A DNA stretch of 64,000 nucleotides from positions 248,001 to 312,000 of the forward strand of contig JAUFOR010000005.1 in assembly GCA_040285745.1 (NCBI GenBank), written 5' to 3'. Below, piece after piece: positions 20,478 through 63,439 of this stretch. The DNA is from Barthelona sp. PCE. Its lineage: Eukaryota. The notes beneath the pieces are model-generated. The model searched no databases and was not told the DNA's origin. It saw nothing but the letters and a program-made list of their open reading frames with translations. The position numbers and the translations under genes are program-made. Numbering within the stretch: position 1 is the stretch's first letter; the number at the start of each line of letters is the position of its first letter.

Positions 20478-20674
20478 AAAATGAAGATATTGGGAAAAGG
20501 AAAAGACGGAAAAACTAAAACGACATATTTAAACTCAGTTCACATTTCCATTCTTGAAATCGTGTGTCGTGAAAGGATAACGAAAGGAAATCATTCGGTT
20601 TCATTCTTTTTACTGTCAGAAAAGGAATATTTCTATCATTAGTTGTGTATTTCAGGTACATGCTAGTAATGCAG

Positions 20675-21202
20675 ATGACCACTCTCAAACTAGATAAAAC
20701 AACGTATACTTCGAATATAGAATGTATATTTGCATCGTTTTGCATAAGCAGGTTTTCTGATTTAGATCTTGAAATTAAGGTGATTTAAATCAATGTTCAT
20801 TTCACTAGAATGGTTAGTTAACTGATTTTTAGAACACTGCCAACATATATTAGCTTGTTAATGTCTTTCAATAATGCTTTACTCCAAATGTTTACAATGT
20901 AGCATTATCAACGAATTTGAGGAATTCAATGGGCACAAAATTCCAGAAAGTTTACAATATCGCCAAATTCGAAACATACACCCTGAAATTCAATTTTTCT
21001 GTTCATTGTCAGATTTTTGACAGTTTTTATGTTTGGTATTGATGCAAATAGAGAGCTTCCACAGAAACAGGGGTTCTTGGAAGAGCATAATGATGCCATT
21101 CCTGAAGAAATTTCATTCTTTGAGGCTATGATATTTATTAACGATAACGCTGCTCCCGCGAACCAAAATTCGTATTTGGAGAAGCTTAAGAACACTGAGT
21201 AG
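20675..21202 (+). pseudogene. Fragmented, possibly spliced gene remnant of unknown function
   Basis: ATG 20675 opens 35 codons up to a candidate intron 20780-20832 ending ACTGATTTTTAG. Downstream protein-like segments lie in different frames (IINEFEEF...SDF, then LTVFMFG...KNTE). Confidence 0.25.
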
Positions 21203-21216
21203 ATATTTATCCTATT

Positions 21217-21951
21217 CTATTCCAATGAATTGCATATTTTGAACTGTTCTACCCAGTTTTTAAGTTGTTGTTGATACTCCTCGCATCTCTTATGCCATCT
21301 CATATCCAGTGTGTGCATCTCATCCTTGTGAGAGTTTTCTAAAGCAAGTATCCTAGTAGTATACATTTTTTGGATTTCCTTGATTTGTCTTTTGTTATTT
21401 TCCAGATTCATATCCTTCTGCATGTCGAGTTCAGCAGATATCTGTTCATTGTAGTTAGTTAATTGCGATTTTGAGACGTTTAACAGTTGAATACTTTCTT
21501 TTTTCAGATCCCTCATGCTTTCTTTAATTAGTAAAAGATTGGAATTAACAGCACTGATGTGGTCGTTTATGCTCTCGAGTAAATTACGTGACAATGTTGG
21601 TTTTAGGAGATCATCTATCTCATTTTTTCTAGGCTCGCTTTTGTCCTCGCAAATTATAGTTGATAAGTGTTCTAATCTTGCCATGCGCTCATCAAGCATC
21701 GTTAAAGCTGGTGCCATTCCGTTATCCGTTCTCTCAGAACCTGCTCTATTCTTTCTTAAAAGAACGCGTTTTGTGATATGTTTCTTAATCTCAAGGTACT
21801 TCGCAAGTACACCTTCATCAGCAATCTGTTGAATAAGTTGTTCAGAAACGCTTAGAAGTTCAAGTAGACAGGTTACTTCAAAGGTCCCTGGTTCAATATC
21901 TCCAAAAAGTAACAATTCACTTAGAGACACTGCTGTTTTTCCCGTTTGCAT
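21217..21951 (-). CDS. Hypothetical coiled-coil protein
   Basis: About 245-aa ORF with heptad-rich C-terminal half; first in-frame ATG at 21951, true start uncertain. Confidence 0.65.
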   Translation of the reverse strand: MQTGKTAVSLSELLLFGDIEPGTFEVTCLLELLSVSEQLIQQIADEGVLAKYLEIKKHITKRVLLRKNRAGSERTDNGMAPALTMLDERMARLEHLSTIICEDKSEPRKNEIDDLLKPTLSRNLLESINDHISAVNSNLLLIKESMRDLKKESIQLLNVSKSQLTNYNEQISAELDMQKDMNLENNKRQIKEIQKMYTTRILALENSHKDEMHTLDMRWHKRCEEYQQQLKNWVEQFKICNSLE

Positions 21952-22463
21952 AAAAATTCGTACCAAAAAAGAAGTACTTGCAATGAAAAGGGATTCAGTA
22001 GAATATACGACATTTTACAGTAAAGTATGAATTGATAGCTATTGAGACGGTATTTAGAATACACACTGCATTCATTATACCAATGATAAGTGATGAATGA
22101 AAAATTTTTGGAAAATTGAAAAAAATTGAAAAAAAATGAAAAAAAAAACAGCCCCATGTGAATGTTGTGGCTACAACAACTCCAAAAATAAACAGAAATA
22201 AGTTTAAAATGAAACATTACAGAACATAACTATAACGTGCATAAAAGGGTTCAAACTAGACAGTCAAAAGCAAGCTTACACCAAACAAGAGCAAAATAAG
22301 TATTAGATTCACATAGGAAAAAAAACATCCAAACAAGACAAACTTTCAGCTACCTTACTGAACTACTGTATTAGAAATGGCTTCAATAAGCACTAGAACG
22401 ACTAAATATGACTGAATAAAGGTGAGAAACTTCCTTTCAATTATTCTACTTTTTTGTTCACAG

Positions 22464-23061
22464 ATGGGGTATTTCCTTCGATTTGCCCAATGCTTATTCT
22501 ACTATTTGAAGTGACTTTCGTAACGTTTTCTTGAAAAGAAGCTGATTCTGTAGTTTTTTAGAATTTTTTAACGTTACGTCGTTTTTCGAATAAGAGATTA
22601 CATTGGGAATGTCCATTTTAAGACGGTAACTTACATTTAGAAAGCCTCGTGGTATTAACGCTGGTAGAAAGTTGCGTAATCATCGTAAGATTCAACGTTG
22701 GGCTGACAAGCGTGTCAAAACCGCCCTTCTCCGTGGTGCTTCAAGCGGTGGTCCTATGGGTGGCGCTTCTCACGCCCTCGGTACTGTTTTAAAGAAAATC
22801 GGTATTGGTCCTAAGCAGCCTAACTCTGCCGTTCGTAAGTGTGTCAGAGTTCAGTTGAACAAGAACGACAAGATCATTCTTGCTTATGTTCCTTGGGATG
22901 GTTCTCTTGGCTACATTCTTGACAAGAACAAGGTTCTTATTTCCGGTATGGGTCGTTCTGGCCGTTGTGTCGGTGATCTTCCTGGTGTCCGTTTTAAGGT
23001 TGTTAAGGTTGGTGCTCAATCTCTCATCGCTTTGTGGAGAGGTCGTGACAAGAACGCTTAA
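22464..23061 (+). CDS. RPS23: 40S ribosomal protein S23 (uS12); exons 22464-22468 and 22641-23061
   Basis: Splicing GT 22469..AG 22640 gives MGKPRGINAGRKL...; KQPNSAVRKCVRVQL and VGDLPGVRFKVVKV are diagnostic. Confidence 0.97.
22469..22640 (+). other. 172-nt spliceosomal intron in RPS23 with a long internal stem-loop
   Basis: GTATTT...ACTTACATTTAG; removal restores the conserved MGK start in frame. Confidence 0.92.
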
Positions 23062-26214: not shown

Positions 26215-26694
26215 TTATATTATCCTGAGGATAAGTGTTTTCTTATCTATTTGTAGTTGTTCAATTGTTCTATTCAATGGAAGCTCTGTCTCGGTGTCAT
26301 TTTCACGTAAGAAGAGTGCCAGTCTCCGCCTTTCATTACTCCTATTGTTCTTAATCCGCAAATTCAAGTCCCTATTCAGTTGATCGAGGATCCTTCCCAA
26401 TTTATACGACTTCTCAAAATAACATGATGCAAATTGTTCTTTAGGCTCGACTTCCACAAAGAAATCGACTCTCCTGATAGGATCAATGTTGTCGTTACCG
26501 ATAACGATACTTTTTGTGGGTGTATGTCGAGGTTGGAGTGTTTGGCTACCTCTTAATGTTTGTTTAGCATTTCTGCAGTTGTGGTCGTAAGGAAATCGAT
26601 GTTCTCGACAATAAACGTTGTTACACTCCATACATCTTAGAGTAGCAGTTTCAGAACAGATTGCACATGGTATTGATGTTTTATGAGAAAACAT
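26215..26694 (-). CDS. AN1-type zinc finger protein with a C-terminal ubiquitin-like domain (ZFAND1/Cuz1-like)
   Basis: CAIC...CMECNNVYCREHRFPYDHNC; C-terminal FEKSYKLGRILD...NNRS...RLALF; ATG at 26694. Confidence 0.75.
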   Translation of the reverse strand: MFSHKTSIPCAICSETATLRCMECNNVYCREHRFPYDHNCRNAKQTLRGSQTLQPRHTPTKSIVIGNDNIDPIRRVDFFVEVEPKEQFASCYFEKSYKLGRILDQLNRDLNLRIKNNRSNERRRLALFLRENDTETELPLNRTIEQLQIDKKTLILRII

Positions 26695-27067
26695 TTGTGG
26701 AAATTTGATGTTTTGTGCTGAAATACGAGTTTTAAAAGGAACAAAGTGGCCCAAGCAAAGAGGGATAGAAATGTTAAAACATTAAACTGTTCAATTCTCG
26801 GTTCCACATAATTTCTCTACGCCATACTGTTTTTACTTGCTTTCGGTGAAGCCGTGTGTGTAGTTTGTAGAGGGAAAGAGCACTTTTGTGGGCCTTAATA
26901 TTTATTACTTTTTTGTGAGTTGAAGTAGTGTTAGTATGACAACCAAGTTTCAAAAAACAATATTTACAATAATATACTAATTTTAAAGACACAAAAAATT
27001 ACAAGACAACAAGACAACAAATTATACACTATTAAGACTAATGAGAATCTTTAAAATACGAAAAACA

Positions 27068-27204
27068 CTTAAAATTAGTAACATATTGTAACGTTGTTAT
27101 AATAACAACTAAGTCAGATAATATTTTCCGCATGAGGTTCCGAAGAACTAAAATGCTTACTCGGTCAGGGATACGTTTTCATCATTGACAATAGTTTAAC
27201 ATAC
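27068..27204 (-). other. Candidate 137-nt intron of an apparently non-coding host transcript
   Basis: Donor GTATGT at 27204; 3' end ACTAATTTTAAG with the same branch-point spacing as the other introns; encloses the C/D RNA. Confidence 0.55.
27114..27185 (-). ncRNA. Candidate box C/D snoRNA
   Basis: Minus strand: box C ATGATGA (27185-27179), 10-nt guide AAACGTATCC, D' CTGA (27168-27165), GTTC-TTCG-GAAC hairpin, C'-like ATGCGGA, 9-nt AAATATTAT, box D CTGA (27117-27114); flanking AACTA/TAGTT can pair. Confidence 0.7.
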
Positions 27205-27380
27205 ATTGAATTGTTTTAAATAAGGAAAGAAATGAAAATGCAAATTTTCTGCTTGTTTTTACAGCTACATTCTTTTCCTGCCGTACAAAGAATGAAATAC
27301 CTTCAGAACTCCGAACGAGTGTGCAAAATAATGTGAGTTTGTTCCTCTTCAGATTAAAAACTATAATAGTTCGAATTGAA

Positions 27381-28170
27381 TCATTCAGGTTTATTGCGAT
27401 TCAAACATGTTACAAAATCGACGTTTTCCATTGTGTAGTGTGAAAGAGAGCTCAACTCAGATTGGTCAGTTGCTATCCTGAAAGAATAAGAAAAATACAC
27501 ACTATAGGTTAATAATATCAGAAATTGAGGCGAAACACAGTGATTAAAGTAAAGAGGTTGAATATATCTCAAATTCTCAAATGTACAGATCAAGGTTTGA
27601 TCTCAAAAAATCCTGAAACACATCCTCAAACAATGATTCGACCTTCTGCACCGTCATTCTACGCACTTCCAAAGGGGTTACAACCGATATGTCCTGTGGA
27701 AGAGTAAAAACCGGAGTTGTTTCTTCACTACGTTCGTTAAATAGAACAGGGGAGTCAAGAGGGCTTACATATTTGGTCGGAGTAAAGTCACGGTTACGTG
27801 ACTGCATATCTGTTAAGTCTTTAAGCGTTCTAATACTGTTTTCTTCAACCCAACTTTCATAACTATTATAACTTTCGAACTCATCATGATATTTCATTTT
27901 TTGTTCAAAACACTTCTTCTGCTGCTCATATTGAGGTGAAGGAAGCGAAAATCTTCGATCAAGAGCTGCTTTAGTATCATTCAAGTTGATACTACTCCCC
28001 GCACTAACGGGGCGCCTTGACCTCTTCTGTGTTTGTATGTTTTCATCCTTCAACAGATTGGACGCCGTTGAATTGAGAGCTGTTTGTGGACGAAAACGTT
28101 TCCTTCGCTTCCTGTCATGTTTACGATTTTGCAATGGTACAGAAAACCCAGTTATTTGCAACCCATTCAT
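27381..28170 (-). CDS. Hypothetical basic/disordered protein; probable intron 27502-27586
   Basis: ORF 27577-28170 joins the 27381-27593 frame exactly through GTACAT...ATTAACCTATAG (CT|T = Leu); RPQTA and RPVSA motifs. The 3' end is uncertain. Confidence 0.6.
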
Positions 28171-37344: not shown

Positions 37345-38910
37345 TCAATGCAATGTATACCATACCATAGTGACAAGAAACGCTACGTATAAGATAGGAC
37401 TAATATAGGCAAGGCCTTTTGATGTTCTGAATTTGTTTAAACTCATTATTATTGTCAGAGAAAGTAATGCAATGAACAAAAATACCATTGTTATGACGGT
37501 TGGTACACTTAAAGTAAAAGATACTGGGTTATTGAACGCCACAGGTGTTATAAAAACGAAAAGTCCTGCGAGGAGGTTAACTAAGGGATTTAAAAGACAA
37601 GAAGATAAAGCGGTTAGGATACCATTTGAACTCCGTGCGATTGCCATGTCAGCAACAAGATCAGCCACGCCGTTGGCCGGGGACAGTACCATTACACCCA
37701 TTATATCGCCATCAATGTGGAAGACCACGCCTAATGCCTGAAGAACGGAAACAATCTCGTTGGCAAGAAGATCACTCGCCATGACACTGAATACGATATT
37801 GAGCACCCGGATGAACGCATAGAATACTTGCGAGGGATGTGAGTGGAAATAGTGAAATGCAAATCCTGAACATAAAGTAAAAAAACTACAGATCGCTACT
37901 ATGGGAATATGAACATTAAAAAGAGAAAAATATATGTCTGTATTTAATAAATCAAGGTAAAAAAAAACAAAAAAAAGCAATAGAGTTGGTTCGAAAAAAG
38001 CTATAACTGAAGATATTTTGGATCCTTCTTTCTCTTTCTTTTTCGGATTATATAGTGCCTCGTCTGGACAAAACAGAAGAGGAATGTCAGACAAAAATGT
38101 CAGAAACCTAATTAAAAAACTTTGGTTGGTTTCTTCATTCAAATCAATCTCAACCTTTACCGAGTTAGTTGATATTAAGCGTTCTTTTGCTCGATCTGGC
38201 CGACTGTCCTTCCTTGTGTATGTGTATGTGAAATAAACTATGATTGAATATAGGATTAATGAAATCAAAGCCTGCCAGAAATGAAGTGTTCCACTAACCA
38301 ACACCCACGTTACCCAGACAGAGGCAATGAAAAGACTGAATACATCACGTAAGAAGTCCTTTTTTGGGTATATTACGTTGCTTTTCACGAGAGAAATTGC
38401 AGCAATAATTATTGAAATGCAAAAAATCGTTGATCCTAAGATTTCTCCAACAGCCAAGTCTGCATTAGCGTTATTACTGCTTCTAAACGTAGAAAACAGA
38501 TCCGCGGATCCGTTGCTAAATGCTACGATTGTTAAAGATGCAAGAGAAGGTGATATATTTAGCAAATTGGAAAAGAATAGCAAAGCAGGTGCTAGGACTT
38601 TGTCCGCTACAATACTCAGCCATGTGAACATGAAAAACATAAGTATACCAATGAAAATAAAGAAAACAGCAGGGTGATAACCACTGCAAAAGCGTAATTT
38701 AAGCAGGTTTACGTGTCCTCCAAAATTTGAGCATTTGGAGTTCACATATCCACAAGAATCATCTGCTTTTCCGGGGTCTGTGCATGATTCTTTTTCCAAA
38801 GCATCACCCAAATGAGAGGAAATAATCTTCTGATTCTCTACTCTTGGGAGCATTGTTGCGATGGTTAAAAGACAAACAACCACCAACAAAGCAGTATGAG
38901 CCGTTTTCAT
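37345..38910 (-). CDS. Cation/Ca2+ exchanger, CCX/NCLX family, copy 1
   Basis: alpha-1 LTIVAFSNGSADLFS, GEILGS, alpha-2 GVMVLSPANGVADLVAD; Cys-rich luminal N-terminus. The signal peptide fits ATG 38910; the ORF extends to ATG 39003. Confidence 0.9.
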   Translation of the reverse strand: MKTAHTALLVVVCLLTIATMLPRVENQKIISSHLGDALEKESCTDPGKADDSCGYVNSKCSNFGGHVNLLKLRFCSGYHPAVFFIFIGILMFFMFTWLSIVADKVLAPALLFFSNLLNISPSLASLTIVAFSNGSADLFSTFRSSNNANADLAVGEILGSTIFCISIIIAAISLVKSNVIYPKKDFLRDVFSLFIASVWVTWVLVSGTLHFWQALISLILYSIIVYFTYTYTRKDSRPDRAKERLISTNSVKVEIDLNEETNQSFLIRFLTFLSDIPLLFCPDEALYNPKKKEKEGSKISSVIAFFEPTLLLFFVFFYLDLLNTDIYFSLFNVHIPIVAICSFFTLCSGFAFHYFHSHPSQVFYAFIRVLNIVFSVMASDLLANEIVSVLQALGVVFHIDGDIMGVMVLSPANGVADLVADMAIARSSNGILTALSSCLLNPLVNLLAGLFVFITPVAFNNPVSFTLSVPTVITMVFLFIALLSLTIIMSLNKFRTSKGLAYISPILYVAFLVTMVWYTLH

Positions 38911-39018
38911 TACGATTAATGTTTTTGAGCTCTGGAAAAATGTGAGAATTTCAAATGCAGATTGTCCGGTGAGATATGAGTAATCAACACTATAAACATC
39001 CATAAAAGCATACTAAAC

Positions 39019-40629
39019 CTATTTATTTAATGTAAATATTAACATAGTCACACAGAATAAAATATATGTTCCAACGCTGGTTAGGGCAACAATCTTTGAC
39101 GTTCTACATGAATTAACCAACATTCCAACAAGCCATATGGCAAGGATAACCACAAGAAACACCAAAGAGATGATCAAGGAAGTATTTAACTGGAAGTGAA
39201 CTGGATAGTTTAGCGGAACAAGACTGACGCTCAATCCCAGTAATCCGTTTACCAACGGTGACAGCAAGGTGGCACTGAGGGCAATTAGGGCACCACCTGG
39301 GCGCATCGCAATTGCCAGGTCACCGACGAGATCACCAATTGAGTTAGCTGGGGATAAACACATGATACCCATTACACTGGATTCCACATTAAGGATAATA
39401 CCCAACCCCTGCAGCACATTGACGACTTCTCCGGCAAGTAGGTCACTCGCCATGATTGCGAACAGAAGATTAATGATCCGGATAACAACGTAGAAAGCAT
39501 TGTGAGGGTAGACATAGAAAGCGACGAACAACGGGCCTACTATCACCCCGATGAGCACTGCGCACGTGATGTAGCTGATCTCCATGTCGATAAATGTGAC
39601 ATACACGACATTATCCACGAGGTCTAAATAGAAGACAGAAAACAGCAGGAAAAGCAGCGGCTCAATGAATACAAACAGACATATCCAGGAAAACTCATTC
39701 TCTCTGTTCTTCTTCGGGTTAAACCTCTTGTGGTCAGGACAGAAAAGTAGCAGAATGAATGATATTGATGAAAGTAGAAACCCAACAACACCAGTTGTCT
39801 CTTCTTCTTCATCGGACGATGCCTCAAAGTTAAGATCAATTCCGCTCGGGTTGGCACTCTTCAACAGTGTCTCCTCGATGTCTCTTTTCTTTCTCTGGGG
39901 ATCACGCGTTTGAATATACGTGTAAGCGATGATGACACAGTACAAACCAAAGGACATTGCCGACTCCCACATCTTGAGCTCTCCATCAAGTAAAACAATG
40001 GACATCCAAACAAGTGCGACACAATAGCTTAAGAAATCCCTTAAAAAGTCCTTTTTTGGCCAATAAATTGGTTTCACGAGGGTGATCGCCGCTAGAACCA
40101 TGGATACAATGAATATTGCTGAACCCAACATATCGCTGACTGCGAGAGAAAAATCGCCATTAACTGAAGAACGGTACATTGAAAACAGATCAGGAGCCCC
40201 GTTGGCCCATGCCACGAAGGAAAGACTGACAAGTGATGGGGACATGTGTAATAGCCTTGCAATATACTGCAATGTAGGTGCGAGTACTCTATCTGCAACG
40301 AATCCCAATGCAAAAAATAGGGTAAACAGTACCAATATAGCTATGATAAAGAAAATAGGTGTGAAATAAAATCCAAAATCACAGTAACGCCATTCTAGGA
40401 GGGGTACATATCCTGTTTGAATGTTTGAACAGTTATGTCTGATGAAATCACATGGGTCTGGAGCATTCCCTGGATCAAAACAGGTAGCATCATCAGAATC
40501 ACCATCAGAATCACCCAATAATTTTGCAGGGTGAGAGCTCATTGCAGGTGGAACAAAAACAGCAGCCAAAAGAAGTACCAGCAGTACAGATGTTGCAAAA
40601 GTTGCACTCTTAAGCGCATAAGTGCTCAT
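39019..40629 (-). CDS. Cation/Ca2+ exchanger, CCX/NCLX family, copy 2
   Basis: alpha-1 LSFVAWANGAPDLFS, alpha-2 GIMCLSPANSIGDLVGD; shares PKKDFLRD and LLFCPD...NPKK with copy 1. Confidence 0.92.
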   Translation of the reverse strand: MSTYALKSATFATSVLLVLLLAAVFVPPAMSSHPAKLLGDSDGDSDDATCFDPGNAPDPCDFIRHNCSNIQTGYVPLLEWRYCDFGFYFTPIFFIIAILVLFTLFFALGFVADRVLAPTLQYIARLLHMSPSLVSLSFVAWANGAPDLFSMYRSSVNGDFSLAVSDMLGSAIFIVSMVLAAITLVKPIYWPKKDFLRDFLSYCVALVWMSIVLLDGELKMWESAMSFGLYCVIIAYTYIQTRDPQRKKRDIEETLLKSANPSGIDLNFEASSDEEEETTGVVGFLLSSISFILLLFCPDHKRFNPKKNRENEFSWICLFVFIEPLLFLLFSVFYLDLVDNVVYVTFIDMEISYITCAVLIGVIVGPLFVAFYVYPHNAFYVVIRIINLLFAIMASDLLAGEVVNVLQGLGIILNVESSVMGIMCLSPANSIGDLVGDLAIAMRPGGALIALSATLLSPLVNGLLGLSVSLVPLNYPVHFQLNTSLIISLVFLVVILAIWLVGMLVNSCRTSKIVALTSVGTYILFCVTMLIFTLNK

Positions 40630-53290: not shown

Positions 53291-56130
53291 ATGGAACATT
53301 TGCACTCGGAACTCGAAGAGTATAAGCAGCTGAATGAGAATCTCATGAAGAAAGTTCAAAATCAAGCAAAGTATGAAAAATCAACATTCCTTTGTAACAC
53401 CATCTAACATTCAGAGAATTGATGTCTAAACAATTGATCATCGATGAGCTTCAAGAATTCAATGAGCTCTACCAGGCAAAGATTGCAGAACAGATAAATG
53501 AAGTCGACGCTAAGCTTGAGACTGGTGGGCGAAAGGATCCTAGTCTTATTGCCACCGAAGCTCACCACAAAAAGCGGTACTCTGAACTTGAGAATCAATT
53601 CATAACACTTGAAAACGAATATAAGAGGTTGAAGAAGCGTCATGAGGAGTCCACAGTGGAGCACAAGGGTCTCAGGGACGCACATGACGAGCTTTTCAGA
53701 CGTCATAAGAACAGTGAAGATAGTCGTAAGAAATTACGCAGGCTTATCAAATCCAGTGAGTCCAAGCTGGAACAGAAGGCCAACGCCCTCAAGGAGCTCG
53801 AAGCGCGTGTTTCCACCAACGCAGAGCACAAGATGATGCGCAAGAACACTATCTTGAAGGACCGCGTAGGTCTATTAACAGAAGAAGTTGCTGATCTGAA
53901 GGAAGCATTGAAGCAGGAAGCAATTGCTGGCGAGGAGGCACGTGCATTCATTTCTGTGCTCAAGGCAGCCCTCGAGGAGAAGGCTATTGAGTTGTTTGGA
54001 TCAAAGAAGAAGAGCCGTGTTCTTATTGAGTTGCAATCTTTGCGTCAGGAAAATTCTGAGTTGAGGGATGAGAAGAACCGTTTATTGAACGGAAACAGCG
54101 CTCTAGAAAGAGAAAATGTTCAGTTACAGGAACAAGTTAACGAAATTTCAAGCGCTGATATCGATAATTTACGTAATGAGTTGTTACACTATCAAAGCGA
54201 TATTACCGTTCTCAACGAGGAGAAGACAGCACTGCTGGAGGTTGTAACAGATAACCAGCAGAAATTGAGTGATTATGAGGATATGGAGCAACGTTGTCAA
54301 GAGATTGAGGCCGAATTAACTTTGGTAACTGAGAAGTATAATGAGACTAGGATCTTGGCATCGTCGTTGGTGAACGTCGAGGAGGACAAGGCTATGTTAA
54401 TGCAGGAGGTGTCTCGTCTTGAGAAGGAAAAGAGTGATATGCAGAAAAAGATCAGCAGTACACTCACACTTCATTCAGATGTCCAGACTGAGAAGGAGAG
54501 TCTTTTACAGGAGCATAATAACGTGCAAACGGAATATACAAGCCTGAAGCATATGTACGAGCAGCGAAATAGAGAATGCGCTGATTATAAGCGTATTGTA
54601 TCCGAACTCGACGGAGATAAGACATTATTGACTGAGCAGCTCACCAAGATGCAGGAGATGATGACTTCTTTCGGAGCCAACTACGAAGATCTGGTTCAGG
54701 AGAAGCAGGATCTTCGTCAAAAGTATGAGGAGCTCAAGAAGAACTCTTCAAATACTGTTCAACAGATGAAACGCGAAACCGATATGAAGAACGCACTGGA
54801 GGATCAATGTGAGATGTATGAGAACGAAATCAGCACATACAAGGTTCAGATTGATTCCAACAACGAGCTCATAGAAAAGTGCAACGATGAGATCAAGATG
54901 CTAGAAGGCGATGTGCAGACATTGGAACAAGCAATGCTAACTAAGGACGGCGTTATTGATTCACTTAGAACGATGGTTTCTGAACTCACATCGAAGAATA
55001 GTGAGTTGACAACATCCGTTGGTGAATTGCGTTCAACCAGTGAGTTGACACACCAGTTTTTCGATAAAGAGAGACGAACATTCCTCGATTTACAGCAGCA
55101 GTTCATGGATATTAAGCAGAAGTACAGCGAGCTTGAAATTACGCACGCCACCATGATGCAGCGCAAGGACACTGTGGAGCTAGAACTGAACAGTTTGTTG
55201 AAGTCGAAGAATGCAAACGAGAGACGCATTACCGAGCTTGAGCACGAGAAGGGTGCACTCGTTACCGCCACATCAGATATGGAAGCGCTTAACCAGCATA
55301 TTAGAGTTCTGGAAGCTCAAGAAGAGCAGAATATTGAAGAAATTAAGGAGTTGAAGGAAAACATTGATGAGCTCCAATCATTATTGCAGGATATGAGCAC
55401 CCGTGAAGGATCGTTGTTGAAGGAGAAGGATGCGATTGAAGCCGAATACCAAGATCATAAGGATTCGATTAAGTTACACTCTGACGTATTTATCGAGAAG
55501 ATCAAATCACTGCAGCGTGAGAACGAGATGTTAGTCAATGAGAAGGGTAACAACGAGCAGCTCAATGAGTTGTTGAAGATCAGAAGCGATGCAGTTTCGT
55601 CATTGGAGACTGAAAACAGTGATCTTGAGGATAAGTTGCGCTATGTTAACGCAAAGAATGAGAAGATCATCGAAGAGAACACGTTACTCAAGGAACAGGT
55701 TGAGAAGATGTCAGATTCAATCGAATATAGTAACATTAAGTATCAAAAATCCATGGATTTGATTCAAACTCAAAAAGAAGAAGGTGAGAAGCGTATGCAG
55801 GCTGAGATTAGAGCCCTTGCCAACAGGGTTGTCAATCTTAATGACCAGGTTTCTTCACCTATGCCAAAGGGTACACTTAATCACACACATGATTTACGTA
55901 CATCGCAGCTACACACTGATACACTCGCTGATGATAGGGACTATACAGTGGACAAGACGCTGAGCCCCCACCGTTCAGTGAATAAGACACTGCGTGATCG
56001 TATTGAAGGTTTACAATCAAGCATAAATAGCGTTAATTCACCGTCTGCTATTGACGCTAGACTTGCTACCATTCGTGCTCGTTTCCAAACAATCCAGAAC
56101 AAGTACGCTACGCCTAAAAAGAGTATGTAA
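53291..56130 (+). CDS. Long coiled-coil protein; exons 53291-53370 and 53415-56130
   Basis: 44-nt intron GTATGA...TCTAACATTCAG (53371-53414) joins MEHLHSELEEY...QAK to ELMSKQ in frame. Confidence 0.88.
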
Positions 56131-56169: not shown

Positions 56170-57328
56170 CTATTCCAGAATACTCTTGATTTGAGCTTGT
56201 TGTTCATCAGTAAGAGTATCTGGGAAGACCACTTCAACGTCCAGCAACATATCACCACGTCTACTAGCTCTGTTGTGATGTGGCATACCTTCAGAAGGAA
56301 TACGAATAACTTGATTAGGTTTTGTGACTTGGCTTCGATCAATCGTTACATAGTGATCATCTAAATGTTTGATCTTGGTCTGGAATCCTGTAAGCGCCTG
56401 TAGAAGTGTGATTTTTAATTTTGTACGAAGATTATCCCCCTCACGAACAAAAACAGGGTGAGGTAATGTGACGATTTGCAATTTCAAATTGTTAGCCTTG
56501 ATCTTCGGCGTCTCATCTGTCATACCAGCAAATGTGATGTGTTGTCCATCACGCATGCCACGTTCAATACTGACAGGGACAACATCACTTCCAACAATGA
56601 CCTTATGACCCTTACAGTGTGGACACTTGCGCTTAATGGTTTCACCTGTGCCTCCGCAGTGTGGGCAGGGCATCTGGGACTGTTGGAAGAAGCCTGGTCC
56701 AATTTGAACTCGCTTCGATATCATACCAGTACCATGACAGTGATTACATTTTGCAACATCCGCTTTCGATTTTGCTCCAGAACCTTGACATTTAGGGCAT
56801 ATCTTCTGTCTGCCAATCGATAATTCAGTGATTTTTCCAGAATAAAGTTCTTCAAGCGTAACAGGGAAAGGAATAATGAGTTCAGGACCCATTTGAATGT
56901 GTGATCCCCTGTTACCCCTGTTTTGCCCACCAAAATTGAACTGGAAACCACTGCCACCACCGCCAAACATATTAAAAATGTCAAAAGGATTGTGCTGGGG
57001 TTGTTCATTTTCTTGTTTAAGGCCCTCCTCTCCGAATTTATCATAGATCTCCCTCTTTTCTTTGTTTGATAGTACTTCATAAGCTAAAAATTAGTTGTTA
57101 GAACAAAAAAAAAATCATACCTTGGGCGATTTCAATGAATTTATCCTCCGCTGCTGGATCATCAGGGTTCTTGTCTGGATGCCATTTCAATGACAGTTCG
57201 CGATATGCCCTACGAATGCCTTTTTTTGTGGAATCTCTGCTTACCCCAAGGACTTCATAATAATCCCTACCGGCACTTGCGACGGCCAGAAGCAACAGGA
57301 AAGCGATGTAGTAGAAACGAGTTTCCAT
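56170..57328 (-). CDS. ER-luminal type I DnaJ (Scj1/ERdj3-like); exons 57328-57121 and 57083-56170
   Basis: Signal peptide, J domain with WHPDKN. The 37-nt intron GTATGA...ACTAATTTTTAG (57084-57120) restores AYEVLS. G/F region, CxxCxGxG repeats, DnaJ C-domain. Confidence 0.95.
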
Positions 57329-59129: not shown

Positions 59130-59994
59130 GGAAAAGTTGAAAAGGGTTGAATATGCGGAAACTCTTTATTTTTTAATTATTAAGGTGGAAAGGCGTTACA
59201 TTATGCACAAACAGATGGATTAAGGTATTAAGATTAAGAAAGCGCAAAAAGCGCAGGATAAGGTTCTATTAGAACCTTAGCCAAAGCCCCCAAGATACCC
59301 CCGTGCCCAAATAGCCCCCAAAAAACTTCATTCAACAAATTATTAGCCCCTATAGACAAAAAAAAAAGCTAAACAGATCCCCGGCAAAAGTAAAATATAA
59401 TTGTAAACTAGTTTTGAATCTTTAAAAGGTTAAGAATAAGTTAACACTAATAAAAAAGCCCCAAAAAAAGGTTTAATATGCTGTTTTAGAAGAAGATTTG
59501 CCACAACAATCTTTTTAAAGAGTTCAGTCTGCCCAAATAGAATTAAAATGCTAAAGAATTGCCCCAAAATAAAATAATTTTGCCCTTGTCTTACACTTTT
59601 ATGTGTCATAATAAAGAATGATGAGAGAGGGATTATTTTCAATAGATGATCCAAAATTGCAGTGTATTGTCAGGTGGTTAGGATTAACAGTAAAGTGACA
59701 GGTATAGACGGTCACTTTAGTGCAAAAAAGGGTGAAAAAAAGAAAGTAAGAAAAGTTATTTCTATCTGAATTCAAGATGAAATGGTGCACATTATCCGGT
59801 GCATAACTCGCCATTGCACACATAATCGATGCATAGTTGTTGCTAATGTAGTTGGCCTTTTTTTACAAATTATCAGGCACTTCACGTTTTGTAAGTTCCC
59901 GAGTTTCAACTCTATGTGTACCCTTTATTTTCAACAATCAAGCAACCACGCATCTGTTTTTGACCAGTAACAAATCGTAACGAAAAACACCAAT

Positions 59995-61800
59995 TTACAG
60001 TAGTGTAAAGTTATCAAACATATCTAGTAAACTGAAATTCTTCTCTTCGAGGGTATAACCATTGGATTCATCGTTATAGCGTGCAATTTCCGCCTTCAAA
60101 CACATATCACTATCTAAAATCAAATTTAACTTCACCAAAACACCACTAAAAGGAGTCACAATGATGTTTGTTCTCGTGTTATAAAGATTGAACGGTACCA
60201 CACAGTCCCATTCAGATATGTTTCCATTATTAATACAATATACTGAACAGTTATCAATACAAAAAAAATTTGACCCCAAGAAAACTGGATTACTAAACAT
60301 TTGAGAATGTTCAGAATCTGGGATATCCAACGATTGTACACCGTCTTCACTCACAATAATAACATAACGTTTGCCATAGTACGTAAGAACAGCAGTGCTT
60401 CCGTTCATCGGATTCACTGTAACCCTGGCCCCCGCACCCGGTTGCAAGCGGTGTACGTGTGATTTTTCAACTGCCCTGGTTATTGGATTCAATATAAATA
60501 CATAAATAGCACAACTGAACACAACCCATATGATATCCCCCACCCAATATGATGTACGACTGCTGCTATCCTCAACCAGTACAATGGCATCACTCATTGT
60601 ATTCGATTTAAACAAAATATTATGCTTAGTTTGTACTAATAAAGCGTTACCATCACAATACCAAAATGTCTCCAGCTCATCTTCAAAAACATTTTTAATA
60701 ACATGTTCACTTGAACCACTGACAGTAAAGCTATTGTTTTCATCATTTAAACTGTGTACTAACAATCTTCCATTGATATAATTGGTGTGAGTCTTTCCAC
60801 CTACTTTGCAATAAATAATACCTGGATTTTCACTCCAAAGGTCCAAAAACAATGTATATTTCTCGTCTATTGTGACATAAGGCGTGTAACAATGATCACA
60901 ATCGAAAATGGTTGAAGTACATATAGAAACCTCAATTCCTTTTAAACGACTTATCCTAAACGGTACCAGGCTGTCTCTCATGATTCTGAGAAGCTTCCCG
61001 TCCACAGACAGCACATTTCCTATGCTTGAGATAGAAGATGACTGAAGGACTGTGTTTGTCGTCGGTTCTATTCCATACACCTTAAAATTACTTGTGAAGT
61101 ACAGCCATTCGTCGCCTGTTGTGAACGCGCATGTCAGTCTTCTTATTAGACGTGGATCAAGCGCAATATTGATTGTTCTGTACATCATCTCATTATTGCT
61201 AAAAAAATCCATCAATATCAGTCTTTCTGGAAATACACAAAGGTTGCCTACAGCGCACCCCTGTAATCTGACAACTTTAATAAGGCCTTCAAAGTTCATA
61301 TTGCATGGAATTAATCTAATACCTGCAGTGTTATCTATAGCTAGATATTCTTGTGTTTCGTTATCTTGGCACAGTGGCAGCACCCCCTTTGAATTTAGCA
61401 TTGTTGCTTGTATTGTTGTCTCCAACTCTCCGTCTGTATTGATAACTTCGATATGGTTTTTACGACTAAACAACCGTTGTGTTGAGCTAATGCTTTTTAT
61501 ACGATTCAAAGGACCCTTTCCAAGAAGCTTAAATTGTCCCAGATCATTAACAACAATATTTGAGTCATGAGAAAGCAATTCGTAGAAATGTTGAATTGAG
61601 GGTGAACATCGTTTTGATAATAGGGTTCCACAGCAGCATGCTAACATGTCTGCTCCTTCAAACATGATGATGTGATCCAAATCCTCAACAATAAACTTGT
61701 ATGTTTCATTTTCATTATTAATAAGGACCAAACTGTTGCCCAATCGCATAATAGTCATTGAAGGGTGGACCCTCTTCACATTTGCTGAAACTCTTGGCAT
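59995..61800 (-). CDS. Hypothetical beta-rich protein of about 600 aa (possible distant paralog of 28312-30384)
   Basis: ATG 61800 (MPRVSAN) avoids overlap with PCYT2; long intact ORF. Confidence 0.75.
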   Translation of the reverse strand: MPRVSANVKRVHPSMTIMRLGNSLVLINNENETYKFIVEDLDHIIMFEGADMLACCCGTLLSKRCSPSIQHFYELLSHDSNIVVNDLGQFKLLGKGPLNRIKSISSTQRLFSRKNHIEVINTDGELETTIQATMLNSKGVLPLCQDNETQEYLAIDNTAGIRLIPCNMNFEGLIKVVRLQGCAVGNLCVFPERLILMDFFSNNEMMYRTINIALDPRLIRRLTCAFTTGDEWLYFTSNFKVYGIEPTTNTVLQSSSISSIGNVLSVDGKLLRIMRDSLVPFRISRLKGIEVSICTSTIFDCDHCYTPYVTIDEKYTLFLDLWSENPGIIYCKVGGKTHTNYINGRLLVHSLNDENNSFTVSGSSEHVIKNVFEDELETFWYCDGNALLVQTKHNILFKSNTMSDAIVLVEDSSSRTSYWVGDIIWVVFSCAIYVFILNPITRAVEKSHVHRLQPGAGARVTVNPMNGSTAVLTYYGKRYVIIVSEDGVQSLDIPDSEHSQMFSNPVFLGSNFFCIDNCSVYCINNGNISEWDCVVPFNLYNTRTNIIVTPFSGVLVKLNLILDSDMCLKAEIARYNDESNGYTLEEKNFSLLDMFDNFTLL

Positions 61801-61885
61801 ACAACTCAATGTATGAGAAAAGGTTGTGTTTTTTGTTTGCAAATTCAAGTAATGTATTTTTCGCAAAACGAGATATAAGTGCGAT

Positions 61886-62875
61886 TTACTCATCCAACTG
61901 AATGTTTTGGAAAGCTTCTGCTTCCCTGCTAAATTTCTTTGCGTTTCTGGCAATGTAGACTTCTTTGTTATTCCTAATTCTATCGCAAATATGTGATACT
62001 GTGCAGTTTTTGAATGTGCTGTCAGCTTCAAAAGTGGGTAAATCATTGTAAGCCTGGTTCATCATACCTTCCTCAAACTCTTCAAACAACAATCCTGTGA
62101 TGTTGTACAAATTTTTGAACTGCTCATTAAGAGAATATGTGGTGCCCATAATGATGTTATCAAGCCACTTAATTGACAGTAGATTGAGACATCTTTCAAG
62201 CATAGTGCAAAATGGAGGTCTTCCATGCACGCTTTCGAATTCTTCATCAGAAATTAGAGATACAACGACATATGTGCCATGCTTGGCGGCCTCTTCAATA
62301 AGACTAACACCTCCGGGAGTCAAAAATTCGAATGAACCATGCACGACAATAACAGAATCTTCATTGGTTGCTTCACGACATGCATTACCACTTAGAGAAG
62401 CAAAACGAGCAGAGAATGCAGTAAATCCGACACCAGAGCTCCAGAAAGAAGCCGAATCATCCATGTTAAGGATTCTTGATAGAAGGTTACTTGTCGATAT
62501 CCCATTCGTTCTTGGGAAAGTACGGAACCGACCAGCTCTCTTTGCAATACTGTAGCAATCAGTCCCGTCATCGGCAGCGAGGACAAGATCGTCTCCATGA
62601 GCAGCAAAAGCACAGTTGTGCTGGTCAAGAATATTAAGGGACAGATTCCAGGGTGCTCCGGGTACAACTTCGTCTACGTGGCGCGTGGAGCTGAAAATAT
62701 ATGCTCTTTCATCCAGAGTCATGACAGTAGGACCCTTCTTGCGCAAGATAGTAGCATCATCATGGATACCTACATACAGCTTGTTATTAGGGTCAAGCTG
62801 CTTGGCTTTGTAGCAACTAAGGAAGTGCCCGTAGTGGGGACAGTCAAAACAACCATCTAAGTATGTACCGTTCAT
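61886..62875 (-). CDS. PCYT2: Ethanolamine-phosphate cytidylyltransferase (tandem CT domains)
   Basis: DGCFDCPHYGH, KGPTVMTLDER, HGDD, RTNGISTSNL; second domain HGSFEFLTPGG (HxGH lost) and ERCLNLLSIKWLD. Confidence 0.92.
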   Translation of the reverse strand: MNGTYLDGCFDCPHYGHFLSCYKAKQLDPNNKLYVGIHDDATILRKKGPTVMTLDERAYIFSSTRHVDEVVPGAPWNLSLNILDQHNCAFAAHGDDLVLAADDGTDCYSIAKRAGRFRTFPRTNGISTSNLLSRILNMDDSASFWSSGVGFTAFSARFASLSGNACREATNEDSVIVVHGSFEFLTPGGVSLIEEAAKHGTYVVVSLISDEEFESVHGRPPFCTMLERCLNLLSIKWLDNIIMGTTYSLNEQFKNLYNITGLLFEEFEEGMMNQAYNDLPTFEADSTFKNCTVSHICDRIRNNKEVYIARNAKKFSREAEAFQNIQLDE

Positions 62876-63439
62876 TTAGAAAAGGAAATGATAGTAAATG
62901 CGGATCCTCATTCTTTCACAGGAGTATGTATGCTCAAATATGAATAAACGACTGGTTCAAATGCTTTTAGTAACGAGTTCAGAGGACACGTATGCATAAT
63001 GAAAATGTAATTGCTATTTTAATCAGTTGTTTGTTTTCTTGAGGATATACCAGCTTTTGCACACTTGATGTTTCGTTTAATGTGCGGCAAACTACATTAT
63101 GCGAGTGTTAGAATTAGTAACCATTATCGTGTATTTTGTTCAGTTTTTGAAACTAATATTGTTTTCAATGGATTTATATCAGTGAAAAAAAAGATGTTAG
63201 AGGAGTATATATCCACATTTGTGGAAAGTAGAGTTTTTCCAATTTTTTTTTTGCTTATAGTGATGTTGAGGTACTTTCAGACACGTAAAATACTTAGTTT
63301 TCAGGATGGCCAATTGGTGGGAACATTACATAGAATGAGCACTTTGAAGGATCAATGACAAACTACTTTTTCACTTCTTTCACTGTGACATTTCATTTTC
63401 CTTCTTTAAAACCCACACACATTCTTTTTATTCATCCAG

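Follow-up and report, generated by a model that had tools for sequence, protein, structure and literature searches.

The question raised by this locus is what occupies a gap of 820 nucleotides (nt), at positions 26755-27576, in a 64,000-nt stretch of the genome of Barthelona sp. PCE (GenBank assembly GCA_040285745.1, contig JAUFOR010000005.1, forward-strand positions 248,001 to 312,000; this whole stretch is called the window, and its own numbering is used throughout). The window is compact, with long uninterrupted open reading frames (ORFs) on both strands and spacers mostly of 30-100 nt, and the gap holds only ORFs of 56-72 amino acids with non-ATG starts. A preliminary description had rightly called this spacer ORF-poor and had placed in it, on the minus strand, an unannotated box C/D RNA within an intron of an apparently non-coding transcript. 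In the analysis reported here, the gap was found to contain, probably, an intronic small nucleolar RNA (snoRNA) of the snR38 type in a small non-coding host.

The candidate RNA and its predicted target

Inspection of the minus strand recovered every motif of the C, D', C' and D layout in its described place, with a span of 72 nt from box C to box D (27185-27114). Boxes C and D are closed by a stem of 5 base pairs (bp), AACUA/UAGUU, present in both the minimum-energy and the centroid fold, as is looked for in a member of this class. On the basis of these boxes, of the guide described below and of the surrounding splice signals, we hold with good confidence that a genuine box C/D snoRNA would be made at this locus.

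The identity of the RNA is suggested by its guide. The Rfam comparison, which had been proposed as a check, yielded sub-threshold matches that were mostly to C/D families and lay on the right strand: a search of 27090-27205 (116 nt) at E ≤ 10 gave 13 matches, of which 12 were minus-strand matches to C/D families (in 2.3 kb searched as a control there were two matches, and a C/D family accounted for one). The four that matter most are snoR38 of plants (21.5 bits, E 0.16 on the 116 nt and 1.2 on 901 nt), DdR6 of Dictyostelium (20.1 bits, E 0.18), TtnuCD17 of Tetrahymena (18.8 bits, E 0.69) and ceN61 of C. elegans (14.0 bits, E 1.1). In all four consensus sequences D' is immediately preceded by one and the same antisense element, (G)UUAUCCCUGU, and the window RNA has GUAUCCCUGA aligned in register with it, the common core being UAUCCCUG. 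In the register given by cmscan, the consensus CCCUGU-CUGA is matched by CCCUGA-CCGA in the window, the D' box being CUGA in plants and C. elegans. Thus the CUGA that the preliminary description had taken for D' would consist of the last bases of the guide (CCCUG) and a single substituted base, and the weak matches move the box to CCGA at 27164-27161. In addition, UGCGGAAAA in the C' region is identical to the TtnuCD17 consensus.

We take the Rfam family snoR38 to correspond to yeast snR38, and G2815 of yeast 25S ribosomal RNA (rRNA) to be the middle G of the CAGGGAUA motif. If D' is CCGA, C27169 is the fifth nucleotide ahead of it and would pair with exactly this middle G, the site common to the four families. 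The core UAUCCCUG, which stands in the proper register ahead of CCGA, keeps 8 of the 12 or more pairs with the RF00213 target region ACAGGGAUAACU. The complement CACAGGGAUAACUGG appears in print both in human 28S (PMC12477938) and in a primer for fungal 28S (PMC3112068), and yeast snR38 is intron-encoded and guides Gm2815 (PMC5027498). By our own rough estimate, about 0.1-0.2% of random candidates would have, in register ahead of a D'-like box, eight nucleotides that complement any of the roughly 100 known methylation sites. The predicted target of the CCGA register is, accordingly to this alignment, the conserved G of the peptidyl-transferase region of the large-subunit (LSU) rRNA that is Gm2815 in yeast. 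If the RNA is real, it is rather more probable than otherwise that it works, through a CCGA D' box, as the functional counterpart of snR38. The guides had been described as having no verifiable target; this stands for the CUGA guide AAACGUAUCC, which has no known target, and the CCGA register supplies an snR38-type G in the LSU rRNA.

The spacer between C' and D, AAAUAUUAU, had also been put forward as a guide. Even a perfect duplex would reach only -3.5 kcal/mol, so a guide function is very unlikely; the plant consensus is likewise short and A/U-rich at this place. The C'-to-D half would be a structural spacer.

The strongest alternative keeps the RNA and changes its box. In it, CUGA at 27168-27165 is the D' box of a real intronic C/D snoRNA, AAACGUAUCC is the guide, and the target is a lineage-specific site in rRNA, small nuclear RNA or transfer RNA (tRNA); the A of GGAU[A]CGUUU (a GGAUACGUUU-like site) would be methylated, and the resemblance to snR38 would be coincidental or ancestral. 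This arrangement shares all the snoRNA and intron evidence, uses a consensus D' box and a 10-nt spacer that is wholly usable as guide, and would form a perfect duplex of -12.1 kcal/mol, similar to that of the 8-bp alternative. Against it, the guide has no known target, its sole exact match in the window being its own complement (a search of the window for guide targets found just this complement and near matches at chance level), and the four best Rfam families place D' 4 nt further downstream. A C-D' spacer of 10 nt is also at the short end for eukaryotic guides. We regard this alternative as unlikely, and retain the CCGA register and the snR38-type target.

Two hairpins had been reported as additional features of the RNA. 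The one following box D is present as described (-3.7 kcal/mol) and shares 3 nt with the closing stem, so that the two are mutually exclusive. The UUCG hairpin is present too; it was said to be extra-stable, and in this respect the description did not hold, for it has four pairs and -1.8 kcal/mol and is absent from the minimum-energy fold, which pairs CCGAG with UUCGG instead. Both hairpins carry little weight, and the UUCG hairpin is marginal.

Table 1. Elements of the candidate snoRNA, its putative intron and its putative host transcript, in window positions
Feature	Position	Strand	Remarks
Initiator-like TTTTCATT	27238-27231	minus	putative host start; exon 1 about 27236 to 27205
Putative spliceosomal intron, 137 nt	27204-27068	minus	GTATGT ... 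TACTAAT-TTTA-AG
5' splice site GTATGT	27204-27199	minus	
Terminal stem, 5' half AACUA	27196-27192	minus	minimum-energy and centroid folds; partner UAGUU 27111-27107
Box C AUGAUGA	27185-27179	minus	aligned with the C box of every matched C/D family
Spacer AAACGUAUCC after box C	27178-27169	minus	
Predicted antisense (guide) element AAACGUAUCCCUGA	27178-27165	minus	core UAUCCCUG 27173-27166, complementary to LSU rRNA CAGGGAUA
CUGA, D' of the preliminary description	27168-27165	minus	overlaps the guide element
Putative box D' in snR38-family register, CCGA	27164-27161	minus	one mismatch to CUGA; box choice inferred
Small hairpin GUUC-UUCG-GAAC, D'-C' loop	27148-27137	minus	
Box C' AUGCGGA	27133-27127	minus	5 of 7 positions fit RUGAUGA
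Spacer AAAUAUUAU, C' to D	27126-27118	minus	9 nt, all A/U
Box D CUGA	27117-27114	minus	
Terminal stem, 3' half UAGUU	27111-27107	minus	
7-bp hairpin GUUGUUA-UUA-UAACAAC	27109-27093	minus	overlaps UAGUU half of terminal stem
Branch site TACTAAT	27080-27074	minus	branch A at 27075
3' splice site AG	27069-27068	minus	5 nt after branch A
Putative exon 2, non-coding	27067 to about 26945	minus	3' end approximate
Polyadenylation-like TGTAAAT	26968-26962	minus	about 100 nt past acceptor

The putative intron and its host transcript

The genome had been called poor in introns, and in the window we found three, real or likely, among about 35 genes, and these help to define the splice signals of this organism. 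The first, of 37 nt (GTATGATTTTTTTTTTGTTCTAACAACTAATTTTTAG, 57120-57084, minus strand), starts with GTATGA, ends with AACTAATTTTTAG and interrupts a DnaJ gene. The ORF at 56170-56970 is without a J domain, which is encoded upstream; by Pfam, positions 1-47 of the 63 of the J domain lie in exon 1 (57328-57121, minus strand) and end at the donor, and exon 2 holds the cysteine-rich and C-terminal domains. Joining the exons gives an open frame, which includes FIEIAQAYEVLS, and the split of the J domain verifies the intron. The DnaJ protein is of the endoplasmic reticulum type, with an N-terminus resembling a signal peptide. The second intron, of 44 nt (53371-53414, plus strand; GTATGA...TCTAACATTCAG), would add 27 codons in frame to the gene at 53422, from an ATG at 53291. 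That gene has an ORF of 902 amino acids; the added codons look coiled-coil-like, and TTTTCATT occurs 25 nt upstream of the ATG at 53291. The third is in the uS12 (RPS23) gene (22464-23061, plus strand), where ATGGG is followed by an intron of 172 nt (22469-22640; GTATTT...ACTTACATTTAG); this gene is not visible in any single ORF.

The candidate intron follows the same rules. It has a GTATG-type donor, a CT[AT]A[CT] branch motif and the spacing between branch A and AG that is seen in the genome: a presumed branch A, exactly 5 nt and AG are found in all three other introns of the window and in the candidate (TACTAAT-TTTA-AG), so that the donor and acceptor described earlier do have the spacing ascribed to them. 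Over the last 12 nt, the candidate differs from the DnaJ intron at one position. The candidate intron is well supported by sequence, because the accidental flanking of a snoRNA by both splice signals has, by our own estimate from base composition, a probability of about 1e-4. We are fairly sure that the candidate RNA would lie in a spliced intron.

The length of this intron is better explained by its cargo than by a fold that constrains the distance between the splice sites, because the RPS23 intron is strongly structured and the candidate intron is not (z-scores against shuffled sequences of -3.35 and -0.35). The RPS23 intron forms a long rod of -39.4 kcal/mol, which was equalled by 1 of 200 shuffles. 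The core of this rod is a 9-bp inverted repeat, CGUAACGUU/AACGUUACG, and neither C/D nor H/ACA boxes were recognised in the intron. If the core of the ribonucleoprotein particle (snoRNP), about 90 nt between the halves of the closing stem, is folded out of the candidate intron, we infer that about 47 nt are left, near the 37-44 nt of the short introns.

In addition to the splice signals, gene-boundary motifs were examined around the 34 start and 34 stop codons of the window. The motif [CT]TTTCA occurs within 70 nt upstream of 14 start codons, compared with 8.7% of random 70-nt windows (p about 4e-7), and CTTTTCA upstream of 6 (1.3%), within the same distance. Likewise, 11 stop codons are followed by [AT]GTAAA in the next 60 nt, a proportion to be compared with 5.1% for random windows. 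These are candidate initiator and polyadenylation signals of the organism. With this enrichment, therefore, two words at the locus fit gene-boundary signals, TTTTCATT at about 30 nt ahead of the donor and TGTAAAT at about 100 nt beyond the acceptor; both lie within 1 nt of the approximate positions given for them earlier. The words are common, TTTTCA[AT]T occurring 32 times in the window and TGTAAA 59 times on both strands, and are individually weak. Four TTTTCA[AT]T motifs stand within about 47 nt at 22096-22142 on the minus strand (TTTTCATTTTTTTTCAATTTTTTTCAATTTTCC...TTTTCATTCATC), where they occupy part of the spacer that separates the RPS23 gene from the gene at 21217-21951; either a repetition of the initiator-like element or a tract of low complexity may account for them.

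No ORF spans the putative splice junction, and exon 2 runs into stop codons within 15 codons in all three frames. The locus is most simply modelled as a dedicated spliced RNA of about 150 nt, and on these sequence features we consider it reasonably probable that the host is a dedicated non-coding gene. The main alternative is that both the snoRNA and the intron are real and lie in a transcript made for another purpose, either a long 5' leader of the downstream gene for a protein with an AN1 zinc finger and a UBL domain (ATG at 26694, minus strand) or read-through from the upstream ORF of 197 amino acids. The three units are close neighbours, all transcribed from the minus strand, and, TGTAAA being common in the window, the signal at 26968 may go unused. 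Yet the spliced leader would be about 370 nt long, compared with initiator-like motifs 7-60 nt before the start codons of the window; a TTTCA of the AN1 gene itself stands 28 nt ahead of its start codon, and there is a WGTAAA-type signal about 100 nt past the acceptor. A host of this kind is decidedly unlikely in our view. Just upstream of the candidate host, at 27347-27498 on the minus strand, a weaker intron-like pair (GTATTT...TTTAATCTGAAG, 152 nt) lies within the otherwise unusually long 3' region of the 197-amino-acid ORF; no snoRNA boxes were seen in it, and the loose pattern behind it gives many chance matches.

With the dedicated host, the locus would work as follows, the steps of the pathway being taken from established intronic snoRNA biology. 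A small RNA polymerase II unit without coding capacity, on the minus strand from 27238 to about 26945, would start transcription at its YTTTTCA-type initiator. Its single intron of 137 nt would carry a C/D snoRNA of about 75-95 nt, with the core 27185-27114 and the closing stem 27196-27192/27111-27107, whose C/D and C'/D' motifs would be loaded with Snu13, Nop56, Nop58 and fibrillarin. Splicing through GTATGT and the fused branch-site/acceptor motif would free the intron, the lariat would be debranched, and exonucleases would then trim it to the boundaries of the snoRNP. The guide UAUCCCUG, paired with CAGGGAUA of the LSU rRNA, would direct 2'-O-methylation of the middle G (G2815 of yeast 25S) by the fifth-nucleotide rule, and the RNA would most likely be the organism's counterpart of yeast snR38, plant snoR38, DdR6, TtnuCD17 and ceN61. 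The need for this snoRNA would keep an otherwise useless intron, together with its host, in a compact genome poor in introns. Taken as a whole, this explanation (a non-coding host, an intronic C/D snoRNA and an snR38-type target) is the one towards which we lean, if only slightly.

Chance, structure and the remaining alternatives

Several observations weigh against this explanation. No Rfam family was matched at its gathering score anywhere in the window; for RF00213 the score is 21.5 bits, with a gathering score of 45, and all E-values are above 0.1 even on the 116-nt piece. The guide duplex has 8 contiguous pairs (-12.9 kcal/mol), whereas the four consensus guides would give 11-13, and guide positions 1, 10 and 11 mismatch the universal rRNA sequence, which amounts to three substitutions. 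Since the score threshold failed and the guide is only partly kept, the RNA was not filed under RF00213. The proposed D' box CCGA is non-canonical, and the canonical CUGA overlaps it 4 nt upstream; if CUGA is D', no target is known for the guide AAACGUAUCC. Both the shortness of the terminal stem and its offset, 6 and 2 unpaired nt beside the boxes, are unfavourable. The fold is no better than those of shuffled sequences (z-score of -1.47 for a 101-nt piece, the value for the whole intron being given above), a common finding in C/D RNAs. Taken without the boxes, the pair of splice signals (GTATGN, 10-300 nt, ACT[AT]A[CT]N4AG) is no rarer than chance, 1.76 occurrences being expected and two observed.

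The rarity of the whole layout has a similar limit. The composite pattern of donor, C box, D box and branch-acceptor motif (GTATGN..RTGATGA..CTGA..CT[AT]A[CT]N4AG, with bounded distances) was counted in 300 windows simulated with a second-order Markov model, and its single occurrence in the real window compares with 0.0067 per simulated window. This rarity is not overwhelming genome-wide, many windows having been screened. RTGATGA...CTGA pairs with a terminal stem of at least four pairs occur five times in the window, the candidate being the only one outside a long ORF. When metagenome contigs were searched for the C box followed by the guide, 34 loci matched, none of them with a C/D layout as judged by GC content and downstream sequence; they look like unrelated, mostly GC-rich bacterial DNA, and about 34 chance matches are what we estimate for a pattern of such size. 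Four of these loci (L009, L011, L017 and L033) are related to one another, have a G+C content of about 0.5 and share the 21-nt C-box-plus-guide pattern, with similar flanks and without C'/D boxes downstream; they are probably a conserved gene unrelated to the candidate. A scan for bacterial promoters and terminators gave chance-level results and is irrelevant here. No second C/D candidate was found in the gaps 1479-2491, 20478-21216, 21952-22463, 59130-59994 and 62876-63439, which were read and partly scanned with Rfam.

Since the composite is not overwhelmingly rare and the splice pair is common, further independent coincidences have to carry the case, namely a position in one of the few non-coding gaps, the D' and C' boxes, the particular guide and the precise make-up of the acceptor. 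It is on these that the next alternative is to be judged, in which there is no stable small RNA and the boxes are a chance constellation in a long intron or in A+T-rich intergenic DNA. It is helped by the sub-threshold scores of all Rfam matches, by a structure no better than shuffles, by the many windows screened at the first stage, and by the simulated frequency, which would give a few composites in a genome of some hundreds of windows. What it ignores is the non-coding gap, the properly spaced D' and C' boxes, the guide in register with four families and the DnaJ-like 3' motif; moreover, where the other introns are either short (37 and 44 nt) or strongly structured (172 nt), one of 137 nt with neither structure nor cargo would stand out as odd. 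We judge such a constellation to be quite improbable, and continue with the intronic snR38-type snoRNA.

Lastly, an independently transcribed, non-intronic snoRNA gene with fortuitous splice motifs and ends made by endo- or exonucleases, which would suit an initiator-like motif only about 50 nt before box C and for which Giardia offers a precedent in that most of its non-coding RNAs lie between protein-coding genes (PMC1950533), is highly improbable, for a donor within 20 nt upstream and a branch/acceptor motif of exact spacing within 50 nt downstream have a joint chance of about 1e-4 by our base-composition estimate.

Lineage, known systems and meaning

The window has a G+C content of about 0.42 and uses the standard genetic code, and no tRNA genes were found in its 64 kb. 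Its proteins are divergent, many being without a Pfam family. The AN1 zinc-finger protein beside the candidate has zero relatives in a large protein collection; the best relative of an SLC12 transporter (38% identity) is from a Barthelona sp. transcriptome, and that of a GPI/Alg9-type mannosyltransferase (28% identity) from a euglenid transcriptome. Because the window proteins have only such distant relatives, the lineage is, as judged from them, isolated and of uncertain placement. A microsporidian affinity, for which the long introns of microsporidia had been considered for comparison (PMC6349667), was dropped: CEP76-like and cyclase genes are present in the window, and its uS12 is far nearer to typical eukaryotic uS12 than to the chains that we recall as microsporidian. 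Two other gene arrangements in the window were noted on the minus strand. Tandem paralogous genes for Na/Ca exchangers (37345-39003 and 39019-40629) are separated by 15 nt, and two long ORFs in different frames (59995-62046 and 61886-62875) overlap by about 160 nt and may be a single gene with an unrecognised intron or a frameshift.

Among known RNAs, those of the snR38/snoR38 (RF00213), DdR6 (RF01574), TtnuCD17 (RF02293) and ceN61 (RF01647) families are alike the candidate in size, in having the guide core UAUCCCUG directly before D', and in register. They likewise have a short, A/U-rich C'-D segment. The candidate differs from them in scoring far below their thresholds, in its 8-pair guide with three substitutions and in its CCGA D' box. 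We take the host of yeast snR38 to be the protein-coding TEF4. As in the candidate, snR38 of yeast is encoded in an intron, that of a non-essential gene (PMC5027498), whereas the host of the candidate is apparently non-coding.

Non-coding host genes of snoRNAs are known from vertebrates, where they are represented by the UHG/GAS5 type. These hosts and those of the Candida type have short exons without ORFs and an intronic snoRNA as the sole evident product, as the candidate would, with release expected to depend on splicing. Unlike them, the candidate has one snoRNA, predicted exons of about 30 and 120 nt and a compact genome with very few introns, and its host transcript is putative. In Candida, most C/D snoRNAs are intronic, including clusters with tiny exons, and the release of intronic C/D snoRNAs proceeds by splicing, debranching and exonucleolytic trimming (PMC5033589). 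Intron-poor fungi are described as preferentially keeping the introns that bear snoRNAs (PMC8476143). The fungal introns RPL7/snR59 and NOG2/snR191 have persisted amid losses and, like the candidate, carry a guide RNA for ribosome biogenesis; their hosts, however, are protein-coding ribosome-biogenesis genes with conserved intron positions, and the candidate has no coding host (PMC8476143).

The introns of the window most resemble those of Giardia and its relatives, in which the branch site and the acceptor are fused (PMC3510501, PMC6679479). Introns are few in Giardia, Spironucleus and Trichomonas and fall into two size classes; their 5' splice site is extended, and a constant, short distance separates CTAAC/T from AG, all as in the window. 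In the long introns of such lineages, base pairing is held to bring the splice sites to the distance of short introns (PMC6679479); the rod of the RPS23 intron fits this idea, whereas the candidate intron is unstructured and has C/D boxes. For Giardia and Trichomonas, intronic snoRNAs have been called 'highly unlikely', their introns being few and short (PMC3228867), in contrast to the intronic C/D boxes of the candidate, whose own placement among the metamonads is uncertain. In a literature search that covered listed titles, the openings of abstracts and selected passages, neither a snoRNA encoded in an intron nor a non-coding gene hosting one was described for microsporidia or for Giardia, Trichomonas or other Metamonada.

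The arrangement is known from yeasts and animals and is not a new kind of element. What the locus may represent, and we put this forward tentatively, is a minimal gene kept only to be spliced for the release of an snR38-type guide, in a protist with Giardia-like introns that is possibly a free-living metamonad. If this is true, neither a snoRNA encoded in an intron nor a snoRNA host gene without coding capacity would have an earlier example in this region of the eukaryotic tree, and the locus would be direct evidence that the carriage of snoRNAs is among the forces maintaining the last introns, and with them the spliceosome, in reduced genomes. A snoRNA that depends on splicing is one of the few concrete reasons for the survival of introns in intron-poor genomes, and has been documented mainly in fungi; confirmation would extend this explanation to a very different and highly compact protist. 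For this organism it would also mean a first guide for methylation assigned to a position of the ribosome that is universally conserved, the middle G of CAGGGAUAAC, and it would provide a minimal host, with exons of about 30 and 120 nt, in which the coupling of snoRNP assembly to splicing could be seen with a reduced spliceosome.

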